Below are positions 6,372 to 20,758 of a DNA stretch of 24,834 nucleotides, piece by piece. The first letter of the stretch is position 1. Every line of letters starts with the position of its first letter. The notes under the pieces are model-generated. The model ran no database searches and was not told where the DNA came from. It worked only from the letters and a program-made list of their open reading frames with translations. This stretch comes from a virus. Taxonomy: Duplodnaviria > Heunggongvirae > Uroviricota > Caudoviricetes. The DNA lies in the IMG/VR virus record IMGVR_UViG_2563366939_000004, positions 1 through 24,834 of that record; one strand, written 5' to 3'. A program made the position numbers and the translations under genes.

Positions 6372-6446
<75 letters not shown>

Positions 6447-6449
6447 ATA

Positions 6450-6525
<76 letters not shown>

Positions 6526-8773: not shown

Positions 8774-8929
8774 TTACTCCTCAGGTTCGTAAGCTGTGAA
8801 GACAGCGACCTCCGTCTGGCCGGTTCGGATTCGTACCTCACAGAGGTCTTTCCTCGTTACCAGTGCCGTCACTATGACGGTTAAACAGATGACGATCAGG
8901 GCGATTAACATCGCCTTTTGCTGCTTCAT
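8774..8929 (-). CDS. Hok-family type I toxin (51 aa)
   Basis: Hand translation gives MKQQKAMLIALIVICLTVIVTALVTRKDLCEVRIRTGQTEVAVFTAYEPEE, a Hok/Gef family sequence; missed by ORF track because under 60 aa. Confidence 0.85.
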   Translation of the reverse strand: MKQQKAMLIALIVICLTVIVTALVTRKDLCEVRIRTGQTEVAVFTAYEPEE

Positions 8930-9451
8930 AGCCTGCTTCTCCTTGACCTTTCGGTCCGTAAGAGGCTAATCTCTATGTGTCGCATAGATATGGCCTCAGA
9001 TTAATGTTAAACGTCTTGCAGGACGCGTAATGTTAACTGGGGCTTTTCTCTATCTACCTTTGGTGTTCATGCCCGAGGCAGATAGCCTCAAGCACCCACA
9101 GCAATTCTAACTATCCAATACATCACTGCCAACACTTTAAACTCTTACCCTTTAAAACAAGAACAAAATTCAACCAATCAGCATTGGGCGTATACTCATA
9201 TCCTAGAGAAAACAACTCTTTCTGTACTATTTATATCCATATGATTTATAAGCATTTGCCACTTGCCATAGCCGCACAATGACAGTTTGCCATTTGATGT
9301 CAATAGATAAAAATGATCGTTTTCAATGAGTTACATACTTGCAAGGCGTTGCACATCAGGCCCGATTACGTCAGTATCAAAAGATTACAGATGGTGCATT
9401 ACTGCCACCTCGCCTTAATGTTCCAGAACTCTCCAACTTGAGGAATTTTCA

Positions 9452-12984: not shown

Positions 12985-13842
12985 TTACCCCCTGAAGCCT
13001 GGCGGGATCGCACTATCCGGTAACGAGACGGTGTTAACCTGTCGGAGTAACGTCTCAGGTCGAACACCTTTTGGCGCGAACAAGCCCTGGTATTCATTGG
13101 CGATGCTGTGTCGAATCACCTGCTCAGGTGAAAAACCCTGCTGGCGGAATTTTTCCAGCTCCCGTATCGCCCCGTTAGCGCCCTGCTCCGTTCGAATCGG
13201 TTTACGCAATGCCTGGCGAAATTCAACCCACTCACGCCAAAGCGAGACAGAAATCCAGTTCGGCAAAGCAATATCCAGAGGGTCAAACTTTTTAACACCT
13301 CGATTCCCCCGGGGGGGATTTAGGGGGGGATCTGTTTTTAGATCTTTATCTGTATCTTTATTAGTTGCCTTTGTGTTGACATCGTGTTCAAACACCACTT
13401 CAACATCTGTTTGAACACCTGTTAAATTTCTCTCTTGTTTTGTTTGAACATCTGCTTCCTTTCTGCTTCTTCTGGCCTGAACCGATGCTTTTCCTGCGGC
13501 TGATTTTTTGGTTAATTTTTCCCTGACTGATGCCAGATCTTCCTCAATCCGAAGATGCACCCATTCCTCGCCGTTATCACAAAAAAACTCCCGCAAGGAT
13601 GGTTCAACATCAGCCCATCGCTCGTTAGTCAGGCGGGCAATTTTTGCCAGCCTGTTTTTGGGTATTGGCTTTCCTGTTTGCCAGTAATTGAACATCAGCA
13701 ACAAATACGCACCGTGCTCCTCTGCTGACAAATGCATGGTGTCAGCCAGGTAATCAGCTATGTACAGTTGCATGTATGGTAATGCGGCCATAATTGCCCC
13801 GTATGATGCTGCCCGGTTGCTTAGAATAAGCACAAACAGCAT
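12985..13842 (-). CDS. ydaU: Replication initiation-type protein (lambda O analogue position), YdaU-like
   Basis: 285-aa ORF upstream of DnaC-like gene; length and synteny match recalled K-12 YdaU. Confidence 0.7.
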   Translation of the reverse strand: MLFVLILSNRAASYGAIMAALPYMQLYIADYLADTMHLSAEEHGAYLLLMFNYWQTGKPIPKNRLAKIARLTNERWADVEPSLREFFCDNGEEWVHLRIEEDLASVREKLTKKSAAGKASVQARRSRKEADVQTKQERNLTGVQTDVEVVFEHDVNTKATNKDTDKDLKTDPPLNPPRGNRGVKKFDPLDIALPNWISVSLWREWVEFRQALRKPIRTEQGANGAIRELEKFRQQGFSPEQVIRHSIANEYQGLFAPKGVRPETLLRQVNTVSLPDSAIPPGFRG

Positions 13843-13854
13843 GGAAACTTTTGC

Positions 13855-14277
13855 TTAATGAACAATGACAGAATCGTCGGAAGACCCGCCGCCGCTGAAA
13901 TGTGCTTTCCGGTAAACGGCTTGGACTGCATCATCATGCGCATCAATTGCCGTACTTAACGCTTCCTGCGCCGCCAGTAATGCACGGCGTTCCAGGGTAT
14001 CGAAGATGCAGAGTCGGTGACGCAGCTCGCGCGGAAGGATTGCCAGAATTGCTGGGATCAGCTTCTGAATTTTTTCTCTTTGCGTTTTCGTTTCACCTTT
14101 CAACCAACGGTGATAGATATTCTGCTGATTGTTCCAGTCCTTGCCTGGAACCAGGGGCAATTCGCCGTCCCCCTGGCGCAGATATTCTTCAGTAATTGCA
14201 TTGGCTACCCATGCCTGCCCTTTTTCGGCTGCCAGGGCTAACAACACTGATTCGATGTGCTCATGCTTGATTTTCAT
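13855..14277 (-). CDS. ydaT: YdaT (CII-position protein of Rac immunity region)
   Basis: 140 aa; ATGA overlap with ydaS stop; synteny with racR. Confidence 0.75.
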   Translation of the reverse strand: MKIKHEHIESVLLALAAEKGQAWVANAITEEYLRQGDGELPLVPGKDWNNQQNIYHRWLKGETKTQREKIQKLIPAILAILPRELRHRLCIFDTLERRALLAAQEALSTAIDAHDDAVQAVYRKAHFSGGGSSDDSVIVH

Positions 14278-14528
14278 GAATCAACTCCCATCAGCTTTTT
14301 CGTAGTAGTTTTATTTTTGCCAATAGTTAAAATTGCATCGGCAGAAAATAATCCGTTTGATGCATGAGCGATTTTTTCAGCGTAATTTGTTTCGCCGGTA
14401 TATTCTGTGCGAGGCAGTTTTCCGTTATCCATCCATTTGTAGATTGCTCTTTGGCTGACACCACAAACGTCGGCCACAACAGAAACGCGAACAGTTTTGA
14501 TTACATCTTCAAGTGTTTTCTGGTTCAT
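14274..14528 (-). CDS. ydaS: YdaS, Cro-like HTH protein (start at ATG 14528 with GAGGGTGA RBS; ORF-track version is extended upstream)
   Basis: HTH segment VVADVCGVSQRAIYKWM; divergent from racR. Confidence 0.7.
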   Translation of the reverse strand: MNQKTLEDVIKTVRVSVVADVCGVSQRAIYKWMDNGKLPRTEYTGETNYAEKIAHASNGLFSADAILTIGKNKTTTKKLMGVDS

Positions 14529-14607
14529 ATCACCCTCACAATGTGAACTTTGAGTACATGCTATAACAGAACTGACAGTACATTCAAGAGCGAATATCAT
14601 TGAACTT
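14529..14607. promoter_or_regulatory. Divergent racR / ydaS promoter-operator region (OR-like)
   Basis: Repeated AGTACAT motifs (14553, 14576) between divergently oriented repressor and Cro-like genes. Confidence 0.5.
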
Positions 14608-15027
14608 ATGGTTCATGAAGATAAAGCGCGTAAAGAGTTCGCCAGTAGGCTTGCGCTAGCCTGTGAAAACGCTGGTTATGAACAACATGGAAGGCAGGCA
14701 GAAATTGCCCGTCGAATGAAATTAACACCAAAAGCGGTTAGCAAATGGTTTAATGGCGAAACAATTCCTCGCCGAGAGAAATTAAGGGAATTAGCAACAC
14801 TCATTGGAACAACACCAACCTATCTTTTGGGAGAGGATACAGAAGAAAGTGGACAGGTACGTTTCTATCAGGAGTTAAATCCAAGACAAAAAATCATCAT
14901 TGACCTTCTGGACGAGCTCCCTGACAGTGAGACAGATGAACTTTTAAAAACTCTTGAGGAGAAAAAACAGAAGTACAATGCAATTTACGAAGAGTTAGCA
15001 CGAAAGAAAAAACAAAAAGCCTCTTAA
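14608..15027 (+). CDS. racR: RacR prophage repressor (HTH, XRE-like)
   Basis: 139-aa ORF with HTH (MKLTPKAVSKWFNGETIP); first in-frame ATG; in-frame stop at 14551 limits N-terminal extension. Confidence 0.8.
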   Translation: MVHEDKARKEFASRLALACENAGYEQHGRQAEIARRMKLTPKAVSKWFNGETIPRREKLRELATLIGTTPTYLLGEDTEESGQVRFYQELNPRQKIIIDLLDELPDSETDELLKTLEEKKQKYNAIYEELARKKKQKAS

Positions 15028-15094
15028 ACCAGCATAAATCCGGTAGCGTCTCCCTCCGGGTTTGTGCTTCACTTTATCCCATCTCATTTTTTTA

Positions 15095-15150
15095 CACACA
15101 AAATGTACTTAAAGTACTTTACAACAATGAACACAAAGTACATTATATAC
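15095..15150. promoter_or_regulatory. Second operator-like cluster downstream of racR (OL/PL-like) including 10-bp palindrome AAAGTACTTT
   Basis: ATGTACT, AAAGTACTTT, AAGTACAT motifs sharing the core seen in the racR-ydaS intergenic region. Confidence 0.45.
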
Positions 15151-15315
15151 CTACCAACCCCCCCCCGCCCCACAGAACGCAGGGCAATACTTCGAGTTAC
15201 CAGGCAGTGGTCAGGGGTTAAGTAGCCAGCCCGAGGCGTATGAACATGACGGCGGGATTCAAATTTTGCAGTGCAGCAGTTAGTTCCGCCACCCGGCGTT
15301 AAGGGGAGAGATAAG

Positions 15316-15450
15316 ATGGTGTATTACGAAGTAGTTCAGTTTTTGATGGATTGTTGCGATATCACTTACAGCCAGGCTGTACAGGCTCTACGCAGCAACG
15401 ACTGGGATCTCTGGCAGGCAGAAGCCTCTATCCGCAACAACAAAATGTGA
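15316..15450 (+). CDS. ydaG: YdaG-like small protein (44 aa)
   Basis: MVYYEVVQFLMDCCDITYSQAVQALRSNDWDLWQAEASIRNNKM; GGGGAGAG RBS; below ORF-track cutoff. Confidence 0.6.
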   Translation: MVYYEVVQFLMDCCDITYSQAVQALRSNDWDLWQAEASIRNNKM

Positions 15451-15460
15451 GGTGCGAAAA

Positions 15461-15613
15461 ATGCAAAAAATCGACCTCGGCAATAACGAATCCCTGGTGT
15501 GCGGCGTGTTCCTCAACCAGGATGGAACGTTCACCGCCATGACTTATACCAAAAGCAAAACATTTAAAACAGAAACAGGCGCACGTCGCTGGCTTGCCAG
15601 AAATACTTGCTAA
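15461..15613 (+). CDS. ydaF: YdaF-like small protein (50 aa)
   Basis: MQKIDLGNNESLVCGVFLNQDGTFTAMTYTKSKTFKTETGARRWLARNTC; follows ydaG by 10 nt. Confidence 0.55.
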   Translation: MQKIDLGNNESLVCGVFLNQDGTFTAMTYTKSKTFKTETGARRWLARNTC

Positions 15614-16033
15614 TCCATTATTTGGATTAATTCAATATTCTCGCTGTAGGGGTATAGCAGAAACCACCAAAGCCCGGAGGTGGTGAAATAAAACCGGGCA
15701 CAACACGAAGGCGCATTTCCGATATCCATAAAGAGTCGGTCTTGTCTGTTAAATTTAAATGGTGGGAGTGCGCCTCCGGTTGTGAATAACAACACTGCTG
15801 TGTGTAGTCTTGGCGGCATCAGTTTTTTCTTGAAGTTCGACTGATGTCCGCCCTTTTTAAAGTGAATTTTGTGATGCGGTGAATGCGGCTAAGCGCACGC
15901 GGCACAGTTAAAAGTCATGTTAGTCCTTATTGGTTTGGGTGGGAAAACCGACTGTAATTGTTAACTGGTTGCAGTCACCTGGAGGCACCAGGCACCGCAT
16001 CAACAAAGTTCATTTGTAAAAATGGAGATAATT

Positions 16034-20382: not shown

Positions 20383-20577
20383 ATGAGATATGACAATGTT
20401 AAACCATGTCCATTTTGTGGTTGTCCATCAGTAACGGTGAAAGCCATTTCAGGATATTACCGAGCGAAGTGTAACGGATGCGAATCCCGAACCGGTTATG
20501 GTGGAAGTGAAAAAGAAGCACTCGAAAGATGGAATAAACGAACCACTGGAAATAATAATGGAGGTGTTCATGTATAA
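20383..20577 (+). CDS. ralR: RalR (Lar), restriction-alleviation protein / type I TA toxin
   Basis: 64 aa MRYDNVKPCPFCGCPSVTVKAISGYYRAKCNGCESRTGYGG... Confidence 0.85.
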   Translation: MRYDNVKPCPFCGCPSVTVKAISGYYRAKCNGCESRTGYGGSEKEALERWNKRTTGNNNGGVHV

Positions 20578-20758
20578 AATTACCGCCACTATTGAAAAGG
20601 AAGGTGGCACTCCTACTAACTGGACAAGATATTCAAAATCTAAACTAACGAAATCAGAATGCGAAAAAATGCTCTCAGGTAAAAAAGAAGCAGCCGTTTC
20701 CAGAGAGCAGAAAGTAAAACTGATAAATTTTAATTGCGAGAGACTTCAGTCCTCGTGA
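20570..20758 (+). CDS. rcbA: YdaC/RcbA small protein (62 aa from ATG 20570)
   Basis: GGAGGTG RBS; start overlaps ralR stop; synteny between ralR and xisR. Confidence 0.6.
   Translation: MYKITATIEKEGGTPTNWTRYSKSKLTKSECEKMLSGKKEAAVSREQKVKLINFNCERLQSS

Follow-up and report, generated by a model that had tools for sequence, protein, structure and literature searches.

Operator sites on both sides of the repressor gene

Which regulator, if any, reads the short repeats that flank the repressor gene of this Rac-like prophage, and what kind of switch would they form? The window (the whole stretch of 24,834 nucleotides analysed) had been compared in a first-pass annotation with the OR/OL arrangement of phage lambda, and this layout is indeed found, shared operator-type sites being present on either side of the repressor gene. 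Sequence comparison makes it very probable that the locus is an HK022-type immunity module lodged in a Rac-like prophage, with OR and OL dyads bound by the repressor, and that the C-rich tract further downstream stands outside the switch. The switch is of the ordinary lambda-style on/off kind and of the long-studied HK022 type.

The heptamer AGTACAT lies, as previously annotated, twice on the plus strand of the 79-bp region between the divergent genes (14553-14559 and 14577-14583) and once on the plus strand 3' of the repressor gene (15137-15143). A further inverted copy at 15103-15109 was missing from that list, and a copy at 1767 is unrelated to the switch. Four copies fall within 367 nt, in the two intergenic stretches around one gene, and this clustering is not due to chance (rough post hoc Poisson P of about 3e-8). 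The heptamer corresponds to one arm of a 15-bp dyad, TG(A/T)ACnnnnnGT(A/T)CA, and a pattern search of the 24.8-kb window with GWACWNNNRGTWC retrieved five distinct sites, all flanking the repressor gene. Three of them, centred at 14551, 14575 and 14608, occupy the divergent region at spacings of 24 and 33 bp, the third lying over the repressor ATG; the other two, centred at 15111 and 15135 and again 24 bp apart, bracket TTTACA-17-CATTAT and are the only convincing OL sites. Neither the heptamer nor the 10-bp palindrome proposed by the first-pass annotation is the functional unit, which is a dyad of 15-17 bp. The palindrome AAAGTACTTT does stand at 15111-15120 as claimed, but as a functional dyad it has to be given up: it is a by-product made of the spacer and right arm of one operator followed by the first two bases of the -35 box, and homologues carry GGTACTTT there.

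On the repressor's upstream side, the OR1-type operator (TGAACTTTGAGTACA, 14544-14558), which holds the first AGTACAT, came out of the pattern search and aligns column for column with HK022 oR1, its arms being invariant and its centre variable across six loci. The OR2-type operator (AGAACTGACAGTACA, 14568-14582) holds the second AGTACAT, and the OR3-type operator (TGAACTTATGGTTCA, 14601-14615), whose centre falls on the repressor start codon just as in HK022 a site lies over the cI ATG, has the very sequence of HK022 oR1 and oR3. Beyond the repressor gene, the OL2-type operator (TGTACTTAAAGTACT, 15104-15118) holds the inverted AGTACAT together with most of AAAGTACTTT and aligns with HK022 oL TGTACTATTGGTACT, while the OL1-type operator (TGAACACAAAGTACA, 15128-15142) holds the third direct copy.

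This arrangement is that of HK022, whose operator and promoter positions were taken from GenBank feature tables (X16093; HM173637 for HK75) and from the summary given in a later paper. HK022 possesses the same dyad, at spacings of 24 and 33 bp among its three oR sites and of 24 bp between its two oL sites, and its pL -35 box TTTACA sits between the oL sites as in the window. From cro through OR into the 5' part of cI, nucleotide identity is about 70%. Although OR1, OR2, OL1 and OL2 each depart from the corresponding HK022 site at 3-4 of the 15 positions, some of them in the arms (W position, flanks), all five sites fit the degenerate dyad of HK022, TGAAC/TGTAC-n5-GTTCA/GTACA. The first-pass annotation had staked its reading beforehand on conservation of the motif in related prophages, and the 3+2 pattern recurs in eight further loci, from Escherichia and five other genera: two of Salmonella (L125, L126), one of Raoultella (L128), one each in phages of Klebsiella (L159), Citrobacter (L160) and Providencia (L161), HK022 and HK75. 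The six loci other than HK022 and HK75 hold no dyad match outside this pattern, and HK022 and HK75 hold one extra match each, at the position annotated as OFR in HK75; the window has no such OFR-type operator. A footprint of five to six loci indicates that operator arms and the -35 box are invariant whereas operator centres and inter-operator bases vary. In some loci, cargo genes (HigBA, an AAA ATPase and several others) occupy 1.3-2.4 kb between the repressor gene and the OL pair, and even there the OL pair remains directly upstream of the leftward operon.

A hybrid repressor and its Cro-like partner

The two divergent genes point to the same phage. The Cro-like gene (14274-14528, minus strand; 84 aa), annotated as an HTH regulator in the nearest genome, is the first of the rightward (PR-like) operon and is followed by ydaT, a cII analogue; its product aligns with HK022 Cro over 73 aa (E 3e-34). 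The repressor gene (14608-15027, plus strand; 139 aa) encodes an HK022-CI-type HTH domain, aligning with HK022 CI over residues 4-102 (99 aa, E 1e-31) and having in common with it the recognition helix TPKA(V/I)SKWFNGE, and a short PaaR2-type C-terminal domain of about 55 aa. The C-terminal half is 27% identical to PaaR2 over 112 aa (blastp, residues 30-138, E 1e-10), and a 39% identity with the repressor of locus L004 (E 2e-22) is driven by the common motif PRQ..LDLLDELP.SE.D.LLKTLEEKK. Judged by these alignments, the protein is a hybrid in which an HK022-CI-type DNA-binding domain is joined to a PaaR2-type C-terminal domain, and as such a case of domain shuffling between DNA-binding and oligomerisation domains.

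Pfam returned HTH_3/HTH_31 only, with no S24 peptidase in the repressor, and in the alignment the S24 part of HK022 CI, P0021 and P0034 is missing from it, whereas homologues with the same DNA-binding domain do carry Peptidase_S24. Having no S24 protease, the repressor should therefore not be inducible by RecA-stimulated self-cleavage.

Promoters and transcripts

The first-pass annotation had predicted a PL-like promoter at about 15100-15150, and our promoter scan places the candidate at 15118-15146 on the plus strand (-35 TTTACA, 15118-15123; 17-nt spacer; -10 CATTAT, 15141-15146), facing the ydaG-ydaF-kilR-recET-xis-int arm, with a predicted start near A15153. The -35 box is invariant in five loci and equals the annotated pL -35 of HK022, and the -10 box coincides with the annotated HK022 pL -10 position. 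Given the match to HK022 in both layout and sequence and the recurrence in eight loci, this placement is well supported.

On the other side, the predicted PR-like promoter of the Cro-like gene (14560-14587, minus strand) would consist of a -35 box TTGAAT (14587-14582), a 16-nt spacer and a -10 box TATAGC (14565-14560), at the positions of the pR boxes annotated in the HK022 record X16093; the consensus scan missed it because TATAGC has no final T. The promoter scan also gave a putative PRM-like promoter, CTGACA-17-TATCAT (14572-14600, plus strand; 10 of 12 matches), whose -10 box ends 7 nt upstream of the A in the repressor ATG. A TAnnnT hexamer ends at this same distance from the ATG in all six aligned loci, and a Shine-Dalgarno sequence is lacking. 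This spacing and this lack suggest that the repressor mRNA is probably leaderless, for which paaR2 and cI are precedents (PMC8630535).

A hairpin with a 13-bp stem (15031-15068, plus strand), which follows immediately on the repressor stop codon, is predicted with an MFE of -19.4 kcal/mol (z = -6.25; none of 200 shuffles folds as well). Its stability and position suggest that it is probably the terminator that parts the repressor transcript from PL; its weak U-tract accounts for the lack of a call at this place in the terminator scan.

Weighing the alternatives

Are these sites operators at all, and if so, operators of the repressor? The heptamer count taken alone is marginal (5 observed against 1.97 expected, a count of at least 5 being reached in 5 of 100 shuffles, hence weakly unusual), and GTAC, being self-complementary, forms small palindromes easily. 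An explanation by chance matches, or by generic AT-rich promoter sequence that does not act as an operator, is nonetheless barely conceivable: against 0.46 expected matches the extended dyad occurs five times around the repressor gene, a number that none of 100 shuffles attains; the 24-, 33- and 24-bp spacings are the same in nine loci from six genera; and arms stay constant while centres drift. It might also be argued that the dyads are real but mainly serve the Cro-like protein alone or the YdaT/CII analogue. Cro proteins normally use the same operators as their repressor, and the Cro-like protein is closer to HK022 Cro (63% identity) than the repressor is to CI (47%). We regard this as quite improbable, seeing that the YdaT box, TTGATT-N6-AATCAA (PMC9986795), differs from the dyad and occurs once in the window, at 14267; that locus L129 retains the OR triplet beside its repressor gene and has no cro gene; and that the recognition helix of the repressor is conserved in all loci carrying the dyad sites.

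The identity of the repressor and the role of the C-rich tract raise two further alternatives. The first-pass annotation had named the genes racR and ydaS, which would make of the locus a K-12-type switch, with RacR binding AGTACAT-type sites on both sides of its own gene. The prophage is Rac-like and sits at ttcA, its YdaT is 98.6% identical to that of K-12, the ydaG/kilR/recET arm is in common, and K-12 Rac displays the same architecture with its own operator sites, three TAGGC-n3-GCCTA sites in the intergenic region (PMC9638921) and two more that we found around a TTGACA-17-TATAGT promoter downstream of racR. The names must nevertheless be abandoned and a RacR-type switch has virtually no chance of being right, as protein comparison, operators and DNA homology all rule out RacR: the repressor is no RacR orthologue, matching it at 36% identity over 33 HTH residues only; TAGGC-n3-GCCTA is absent from the window; and in blastn against K-12 the window is 98% identical up to 14283, does not align from 14284 to 15151, and is 93% identical from 15152 onwards, limits with which megablast agrees. 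This 868-bp immunity cassette (14284-15151) stands in place of the ydaS-racR-operator segment of K-12 Rac and provides a clean case in which an immunity cassette was exchanged while the two joints flanking it, the YdaT box to its left and the C-rich leader to its right, were conserved. The module being HK022-type, the RacR ChIP proposed earlier is the wrong experiment. As to the C9GC4 tract (15158-15171, plus strand), its position was correctly given (C9 at 15158-15166, a G, then C4 to 15171); its proposed role as a slipped-strand site found no backing, since no length polymorphism was found. A phase-variable switch tuning expression of the leftward arm could be defended, nine Cs being long enough to slip and the tract being one base longer than the usual 8-position CCCACCCC, which would fit one slippage after an A-to-C change. 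We consider it very unlikely. The nearest genome and all other relatives have CCCACCCC at the C9 position; an uninterrupted C-run in this leader was seen in none of 119 IMG/VR loci and in none of 5,426 complete E. coli genomes (best full-length match, 97.8%); C8, C9 or C10 versions of the leader were absent from IMG/VR pattern scans; and the seven matches of a JGI metagenome scan for C-run variants were all unrelated chance sequences. Moreover, the tract follows the -10 box at a distance of 12 nt and precedes the ydaG ATG, the first start codon, by about 145 nt, so that slippage would alter neither promoter spacing nor reading frame, and the sole ORF across it (15064-15225) starts in the non-conserved cassette. 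The tract, 6 nt past the cassette boundary in a leader common to heteroimmune prophages and at about +6 to +19 counted from the predicted PL start, is a private variant of the conserved leader start CCCACCCCGCCCC. Compared with that sequence it is either the product of two private steps (A to C, plus one C) or an error of base calling, and it is not part of the switch.

Proposed working of the HK022-type switch

Read from layout, statistics, homology and conservation, the HK022-type module would work as follows. Dimers of the 139-aa repressor would bind the 15-bp dyads at three OR and two OL sites, and the Cro-like protein probably binds the same dyads, also as dimers. OR1 and OR2 would cover, respectively, the start-site/-10 side and the spacer of the PR-like promoter, which faces left in the window, and their occupancy would shut off the cro-like gene, ydaT and the replication genes. 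OR3, lying on the start of the probably leaderless repressor mRNA, could mediate negative autoregulation. The OL sites lie on either side of the -35 box of TTTACA-17-CATTAT and extend into its -10 box, and when occupied would silence the ydaG-ydaF-kilR-recET-xis-int arm. A spacing of 24 bp within each pair would fit cooperative binding of adjacent dimers, and the OR-OL distance of 500-580 bp would permit looping, as for HK022 CI, which occupies neighbouring operators at OR and at OL cooperatively and joins OL to OR in a loop in vivo (PMC8053113). These properties of HK022 CI are not simply transferable because the C-terminal domain differs, HK022 CI having an S24 self-cleaving domain where the window repressor has its PaaR2-type domain, for which similarity to PaaR2 itself is only 27%. 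Other differences concern the first pL gene, which is nun in HK022, whereas the window has ydaG and ydaF first and no nun, and the state of the element, HK022 being an active phage while the module resides in a Rac-like defective prophage.

With lambda the module has in common a repressor gene and a cro gene that diverge, operator clusters flanking the former and the 24-bp spacing of adjacent sites; the repressor mRNA is leaderless in lambda and probably so here, and PL drives the recombination/int arm in the direction of the repressor gene in both. The operator sequences are unrelated, however, OL has three sites in lambda against two in the window, and neither an N/nut system nor a RecA-cleavable domain is evident in the window. 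The maintenance promoter differs as well: OR2 and OR3 are centred at about -33 and +1, against about -42 and -19 in lambda, and the PRM-like -35 box falls within OR2. As this geometry of OR2 is unlike the activating one of lambda, the model does not explain how expression of the repressor is sustained.

CP-933P (PaaR2/YdaS/YdaT; PRM933P, PR933P and PL933P; PMC8630535) offers another parallel, having a repressor of the same short non-S24 family with the common C-terminal motif, the same gene order with ydaT as cII analogue, an experimentally verified PL/OL analogue beyond the repressor operon and the same conserved C-rich leader after PL. In that prophage, PaaR2 and YdaS exert an about 100-fold repression on PL933P, which has OL1-3, and the paaR2 mRNA has no leader (PMC8630535). 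Its DNA-binding specificity and operators are unlike those of the window, which also has no toxin-antitoxin pair between repressor and OL. The RacR/YdaS/YdaT system of K-12 Rac (PMC9638921, PMC11879457) and the DicA/DicC-dicBp system of Qin (PMC10448788) are built on the same prophage backbone and architecture, with 5-n3-5 dyads, a third operator over the repressor ATG and derepression of both arms upon loss of the repressor. When RacR is depleted in K-12, both the genes from ydaG through intR and ydaS/ydaT are derepressed (bioRxiv 10.64898/2026.09.06.749655; PMC11014345). Both K-12 Rac and Qin are of heterologous immunity, and similarity to the window in proteins or operators does not go past the HTH fold.

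The same combination of HK022 specificity and PaaR2-type tail is encoded by about 1,050 of 5,426 complete E. coli genomes, roughly a fifth. In those genomes, the "racR-like" gene of the ttcA prophage is really an HK022-specificity repressor gene, and since the repressor is not RacR, the results obtained with K-12 RacR (operators, C-protein cross-talk, essentiality) should not be transferred to these strains. It is tempting to hypothesize that a non-SOS-inducible HK022-specificity repressor may give carrier strains a standing immunity to HK022-type phages. The map names the 15-bp sites predicted to control the toxic kilR arm and the ydaT arm, and from it one would expect cross-immunity with HK022-like phages and no response to SOS induction. 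The current understanding of how such switches work is unchanged by these findings.

A conserved leader after PL

The last question concerns the non-coding leader between PL and ydaG (15152-15315, plus strand), which is common to heteroimmune prophages. Over about 95-160 nt it hardly varies among Rac-, CP-933P- and other Qin-like prophages, in at least four immunity types, and its start coincides with the predicted +1 of each PL-like promoter. This is also the position of HK022 putL, whose first residue, going by the numbering in PMC9378689, is +1 of the pL transcript, and neither HK022 nor the prophage type of the window has an N gene after PL. In blastn-short searches with two put sequences, nothing meaningful resembling HK022 putL or putR was found in the window or in ten related loci. 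Rfam gave no match in the region, either from the whole window or in a permissive search of 14950-15500, a result that is uninformative on put since Rfam, which has no put family, also misses the annotated putL and putR of HK75. The fold of the leader is no better in MFE than that of shuffles (z = 0.04), with no support for a two-stem fold, and in RNAalifold on 37 distinct leader variants the pairs are essentially invariant and give no covariation signal either way. A DUF1391-based search for divergent leaders returned 18 loci, mostly of Escherichia; some Qin-type loci in this search are without the C-rich leader.

A small ORF within the leader (from 15240 or 15246 to 15302) keeps its frame in some variants despite a 6-nt indel. 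The majority variant has AAG in place of the first ATG and an extra C by which the ORF is fused to ydfA, and Salmonella homologues do not have this ORF. As a gene it is unproven, given this fusion and the lack of a Salmonella counterpart. Neither can the leader be compared with the prophage anti-sRNAs AgvB and AsxR, which are located downstream of PR' and not of PL (PMC4104026), and a preprint on Pas sRNA makes no mention of ydfA, DUF1391, repressor, immunity, dicB or Rac. In roughly the first 25 nt of the leader C predominates and G is scarce (16 C, 2 G), and the remainder is G-rich; as the C-rich/G-poor stretch is limited to these nucleotides, a Rho-loading site was set aside as a candidate, and the Rho terminator of K-12 Rac has been mapped within racR on the PRM transcript, not in the leader (PMC4150792).

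Conservation across immunity types nevertheless invites the speculation, which we hold to be rather unlikely, that the leader is a cis-acting RNA governing read-through into kilR, recET and int, either as a new processive-antitermination RNA or through a C-rich 5' end that serves for Rho loading or as an anti-Shine-Dalgarno element. If so, the C9 variant of the window would be a natural mutant of this RNA element.

Operator-like dyads around the repressor gene

The window carries a Rac-like prophage adjoining ttcA from a non-K-12 E. coli. The nearest complete genome, O27:H7 strain B4103-1, is annotated in the order ydaT, HTH regulator, divergent HTH protein, small ORF, ydaF, kilR, ydaE, recE, recT, ralR, xisR, intR and ttcA. 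A repressor gene of 139 aa (14608-15027, + strand) stands divergently to a Cro-like gene of 84 aa (14274-14528, - strand), and ydaG starts at 15316.

The first-pass annotation had noticed the heptamer AGTACAT at 14553, 14577 and 15137 (+ strand), the palindrome AAAGTACTTT at 15111-15120 and a C9GC4 tract at 15158-15171, all of which lie exactly there. We found a further inverted heptamer at 15103 and, elsewhere in the 24.8 kb, a single copy at 1767. By itself the count is marginal (5 against 1.97 expected, with 5 of 100 shuffles doing equally well); four copies within 367 nt flanking one gene give a rough, post-hoc Poisson P of ~3e-8, and this clustering is not due to chance. GAAC or GTAC stands eight bases upstream of each AGTACAT, and the real unit reads as a dyad of 15-17 bp rather than a heptamer. 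Five distinct sites in the window fit the dyad GWACWNNNRGTWC, where 0.46 matches would be expected and none of 100 shuffles attains the observed count; all five are confined to the two intergenic stretches flanking the repressor gene: OR1 (14544-14558, TGAACTTTGAGTACA), OR2 (14568-14582, AGAACTGACAGTACA) and OR3 (14601-14615, TGAACTTATGGTTCA, centred on the repressor ATG) to the left, OL2 (15104-15118, TGTACTTAAAGTACT) and OL1 (15128-15142, TGAACACAAAGTACA) to the right. Centres are 24 and 33 bp apart in the left cluster and 24 bp apart in the right one, the clusters being separated by 503-584 bp. The palindrome AAAGTACTTT does not mark the symmetry centre of any element: it takes in the spacer and right arm of a single site together with the first two bases of the -35 box, and homologues have GGTACTTT in its place.

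An HK022-type switch in a Rac-like prophage

The repressor had been taken for racR, an assignment that we abandon, as identity with RacR amounts to only 36% over 33 residues. K-12 Rac DNA aligns to the window at 98% as far as 14283 and at 93% from 15152 onwards, with nothing between, and the two YdaT proteins are 98.6% identical. The RacR operator is TAGGC-n3-GCCTA (PMC9638921), which has no match anywhere in the window. A search of phage genomes returned coliphages HK022 and HK75, to which the window is ~70% identical in nucleotides from cro through the intergenic region into the 5' part of the repressor gene. With HK022 CI the repressor shares 47% identity in its first 100 residues (E 1e-31) and the recognition helix TPKA(V/I)SKWFNGE, and identity between the Cro-like protein and HK022 Cro is 63%.

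According to the GenBank feature tables (X16093 for HK022), both phages have oR1 (TGAACTTATGGTTCA), oR2 (GGAACTGATAGTACA) 24 bp away and oR3 (TGAACTTATGGTTCA) another 33 bp on, covering the cI ATG, while their oL sites, TGTACTATTGGTACT and TGAACTTTAAGTACA, are 24 bp apart. The -35 box of pL (TTTACA) lies between both oL sites and its -10 box just past the second; the -10 box of pR lies between oR1 and oR2 and its -35 box abuts oR2. The window by itself had already yielded this layout, and at one site even the sequence is the same. Judged from these comparisons, the switch is an HK022-specificity immunity cassette (14284-15151, 868 bp) set into a Rac-like prophage, and its repressor has a non-cleavable tail of the PaaR2 type. 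The switch belongs to a well-known kind, and ~1,050 of 5,426 complete E. coli genomes have an HK022-specificity cassette in a Rac-like prophage.

Among repressor homologues one DNA-binding domain is joined to two alternative C-terminal halves. In HK022 CI and the homologues from Raoultella and metagenomes (235-240 aa) this half is Peptidase_S24. In the window's repressor, the Salmonella homologues, the repressor encoded by the heteroimmune locus L004 and PaaR2 of CP-933P, it is a short domain bearing the motif PRQ..LD.L.ELP.SE.D.LLKTLEEKK. Since the window repressor has this short domain instead of Peptidase_S24, it should lack RecA-stimulated self-cleavage, as noted for PaaR2 too (PMC8630535).

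Predicted promoters and mode of repression

A consensus scan called a PL-like promoter, TTTACA (15118)-17-CATTAT (15146), whose -35 box lies between the two right-hand operators and whose -10 box overlaps the second, and a PRM-like promoter, CTGACA (14572)-17-TATCAT (14600), both on the + strand. The latter's -10 box ends 7 nt ahead of the A of the repressor ATG, and there is no Shine-Dalgarno sequence. The scan did not call the leftward promoter of the Cro-like gene, which was placed by homology (- strand; -35 TTGAAT, 14587-14582; -10 TATAGC, 14565-14560). Directly 3' of the repressor stop is a strong hairpin with a 13-bp stem (15031-15068; -19.4 kcal/mol, z = -6.25) and a weak U-tract behind it; transcription of the repressor gene probably terminates here, upstream of PL.

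From analogy with relatives studied by experiment, we propose that repressor bound to OR1 and OR2 would block the PR-like promoter and, bound to OL1 and OL2, the PL-like promoter, and that by occupying OR3 it would limit production from its own mRNA, which is probably leaderless. At this module, operator binding, promoter activity, transcription start sites, cooperativity and looping are all predicted. HK022 CI binds adjacent operators cooperatively and forms an OL-OR loop in vivo, at a natural separation of ~700 bp (PMC8053113). In CP-933P, paaR2 is leaderless and a PL analogue with OL1-3 is repressed ~100-fold by PaaR2 and YdaS (PMC8630535); in Qin, dicBp is repressed by DicA (PMC10448788). 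In K-12, silencing of racR derepresses ydaG, kilR, recET, xisR, intR and ydaS/ydaT (bioRxiv 10.64898/2026.09.06.749655; PMC11014345). Unlike in lambda, the centre of OR2 falls near -33 of the maintenance promoter and the site holds its -35 box; positive autoregulation of the lambda kind is therefore not expected.

Conservation of operators and modularity of cargo

Conservation in related prophages, on which the lambda-like OR/OL-PL reading of the first-pass annotation was to stand or fall, was examined in loci fetched via repressor homologues and in additional phage records, and it was found. Three OR sites (24 and 33 bp) and an OL pair (24 bp) occur in two Salmonella loci (L125, L126), Raoultella (L128), Klebsiella phage 2 LV-2017 (L159), Citrobacter phage Omnitron (L160), Providencia phage PSTNGR2lys (L161), HK022 and HK75. 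No further dyad matches were found in each 5-8 kb locus save one extra in HK022 and one in HK75, the latter coinciding with the annotated OFR site. In the alignments, operator arms and the -35 TTTACA are invariant and operator centres and inter-operator bases vary, which is the pattern expected for protein-binding sites. The lambda-like OR/OL-PL reading is right in kind.

The OL pair always lies directly upstream of the leftward operon, regardless of the genes that separate it from the repressor gene, namely HigB/HigA in L125 and L126 (3053-3755), a 480-aa AAA ATPase (AAA_15/AAA_21) in L128 (3308-4750) and ~2.2 kb of small genes in L161. In a CP-933P-type locus (L003), PaaA2/ParE2 sits between repressor gene and OL/PL pair (1933-2411); rexAB occupies the corresponding position in lambda. 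At one locus (L129) the OR triplet still stands beside the repressor gene, the divergent neighbour being a Q-type antiterminator instead of cro.

The conserved leader and the C tract

The PL-like promoter is followed by a leader of roughly 95-160 nt (15152-15315 in the window), without annotation everywhere, which is possibly the sole new part of the region. It is almost invariant from 15152 to ~15245 over dozens of mosaic contexts, with a 3' part in a few variants, and follows a PL-like promoter in at least four immunity types (K-12 Rac, CP-933P/PaaR2, L004 and HK022). It is C-rich in its first ~25 nt only; a shorter form, recognisably akin to it, occurs in Salmonella relatives, and some Qin-type loci lack the C-rich leader. 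In Shigella/E. coli Qin-type loci L146 and L151, the dicB-operon leaders, ~300 nt upstream of ydfA, match the window's leader over no more than its last ~35 nt (GTTCCGCTACCCCGGCGTTAAGGGG...) and have no C-rich 5' part; the leader is thus itself modular. Its position is that of HK022 putL, whose first base is +1 of the pL transcript. Sequence comparison with putL and putR showed no similarity, and Rfam, which holds no put model, gave no match. The leader folds no better than shuffles, and no covariation was shown, because it hardly varies.

The first-pass annotation had proposed the C9GC4 tract as a candidate slipped-strand site. As the cassette ends at 15151 and the tract begins at 15158, it lies outside the immunity module, in the leader common to K-12 Rac, CP-933P-type and other Qin-like prophages, whose repressors and operators differ. 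The leader starts (A)CCCACCCCGCCCCACAG in 119 IMG/VR loci with scattered point changes only; none of the 119 has the window's C run, and exact-pattern scans of IMG/VR found no C8, C9 or C10 version. The nearest genome, B4103-1, has CCCACCCC at this position. A 91-nt query centred on the tract has no exact full-length match in the 5,426 complete genomes (best match 97.8%, one mismatch and one gap), and a JGI metagenome scan for any run of 7-11 returned seven matches, all in unrelated sequences. The tract is also placed downstream of the -10 box, with ~145 nt separating it from the first start codon, and so lacks the positional logic of a contingency locus. Slipped-strand variation, with neither population signature nor such logic, is unsupported. 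The C9 tract reflects either a base-calling error or a private mutation in which an A became C and one further C was added. It is not the sole such run in the window, since there are also a C8 (10898-10905) and two G7 runs (13311-13317 and 13323-13329), 5 bp apart in proline codons of a ydaU-like gene on the minus strand.

A small ORF in the leader (MNMTAGFKFCSAAVSSATRR, 15240-15302) has GAGG 3 nt upstream and a stop overlapping the ydaG Shine-Dalgarno sequence. Qin-type variants with a 6-nt indel preserve its frame. The majority variant, however, has AAG for the first ATG and one additional C, by which the ORF is fused to ydfA, and Salmonella homologues lack it. At the other end of the cassette, TTGATTTTCATGAATCAA (14267-14284) fits the published YdaT box TTGATT-N6-AATCAA and spans the ydaT start codon, within a 35-bp stretch (14254-14288) that is 94-97% conserved in the heteroimmune loci L003 and L004; the cassette is thus bracketed by two conserved joints.

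A possible counterpart in K-12 Rac

The RacR operator paper (PMC9638921) mentions neither ydaG, ydaF nor kilR, and the portions seen of the other K-12 literature describe no operators on the ydaG side of racR. In K-12 W3110 Rac (L002, 2451-2490), RacR-type dyads TTAGGCATAGCCTAT and TTAGGCATTACCTAT, 25 bp apart, surround a near-consensus TTGACA-17-TATAGT promoter just upstream of the conserved leader and ydaG, and from its sequence this segment looks like OL/PL for K-12 RacR.

As to other prophage content, the superinfection exclusion gene sieB, which K-12 Rac carries between ydaF and kilR, is absent here (15593-15638 in the window against L002 2940-3493), and Rfam matches on the minus strand comprise the RalA antitoxin sRNA (20576-20754), the sok antitoxin RNA beside hokD (8927-9097) and two tRNA genes (6375-6525).
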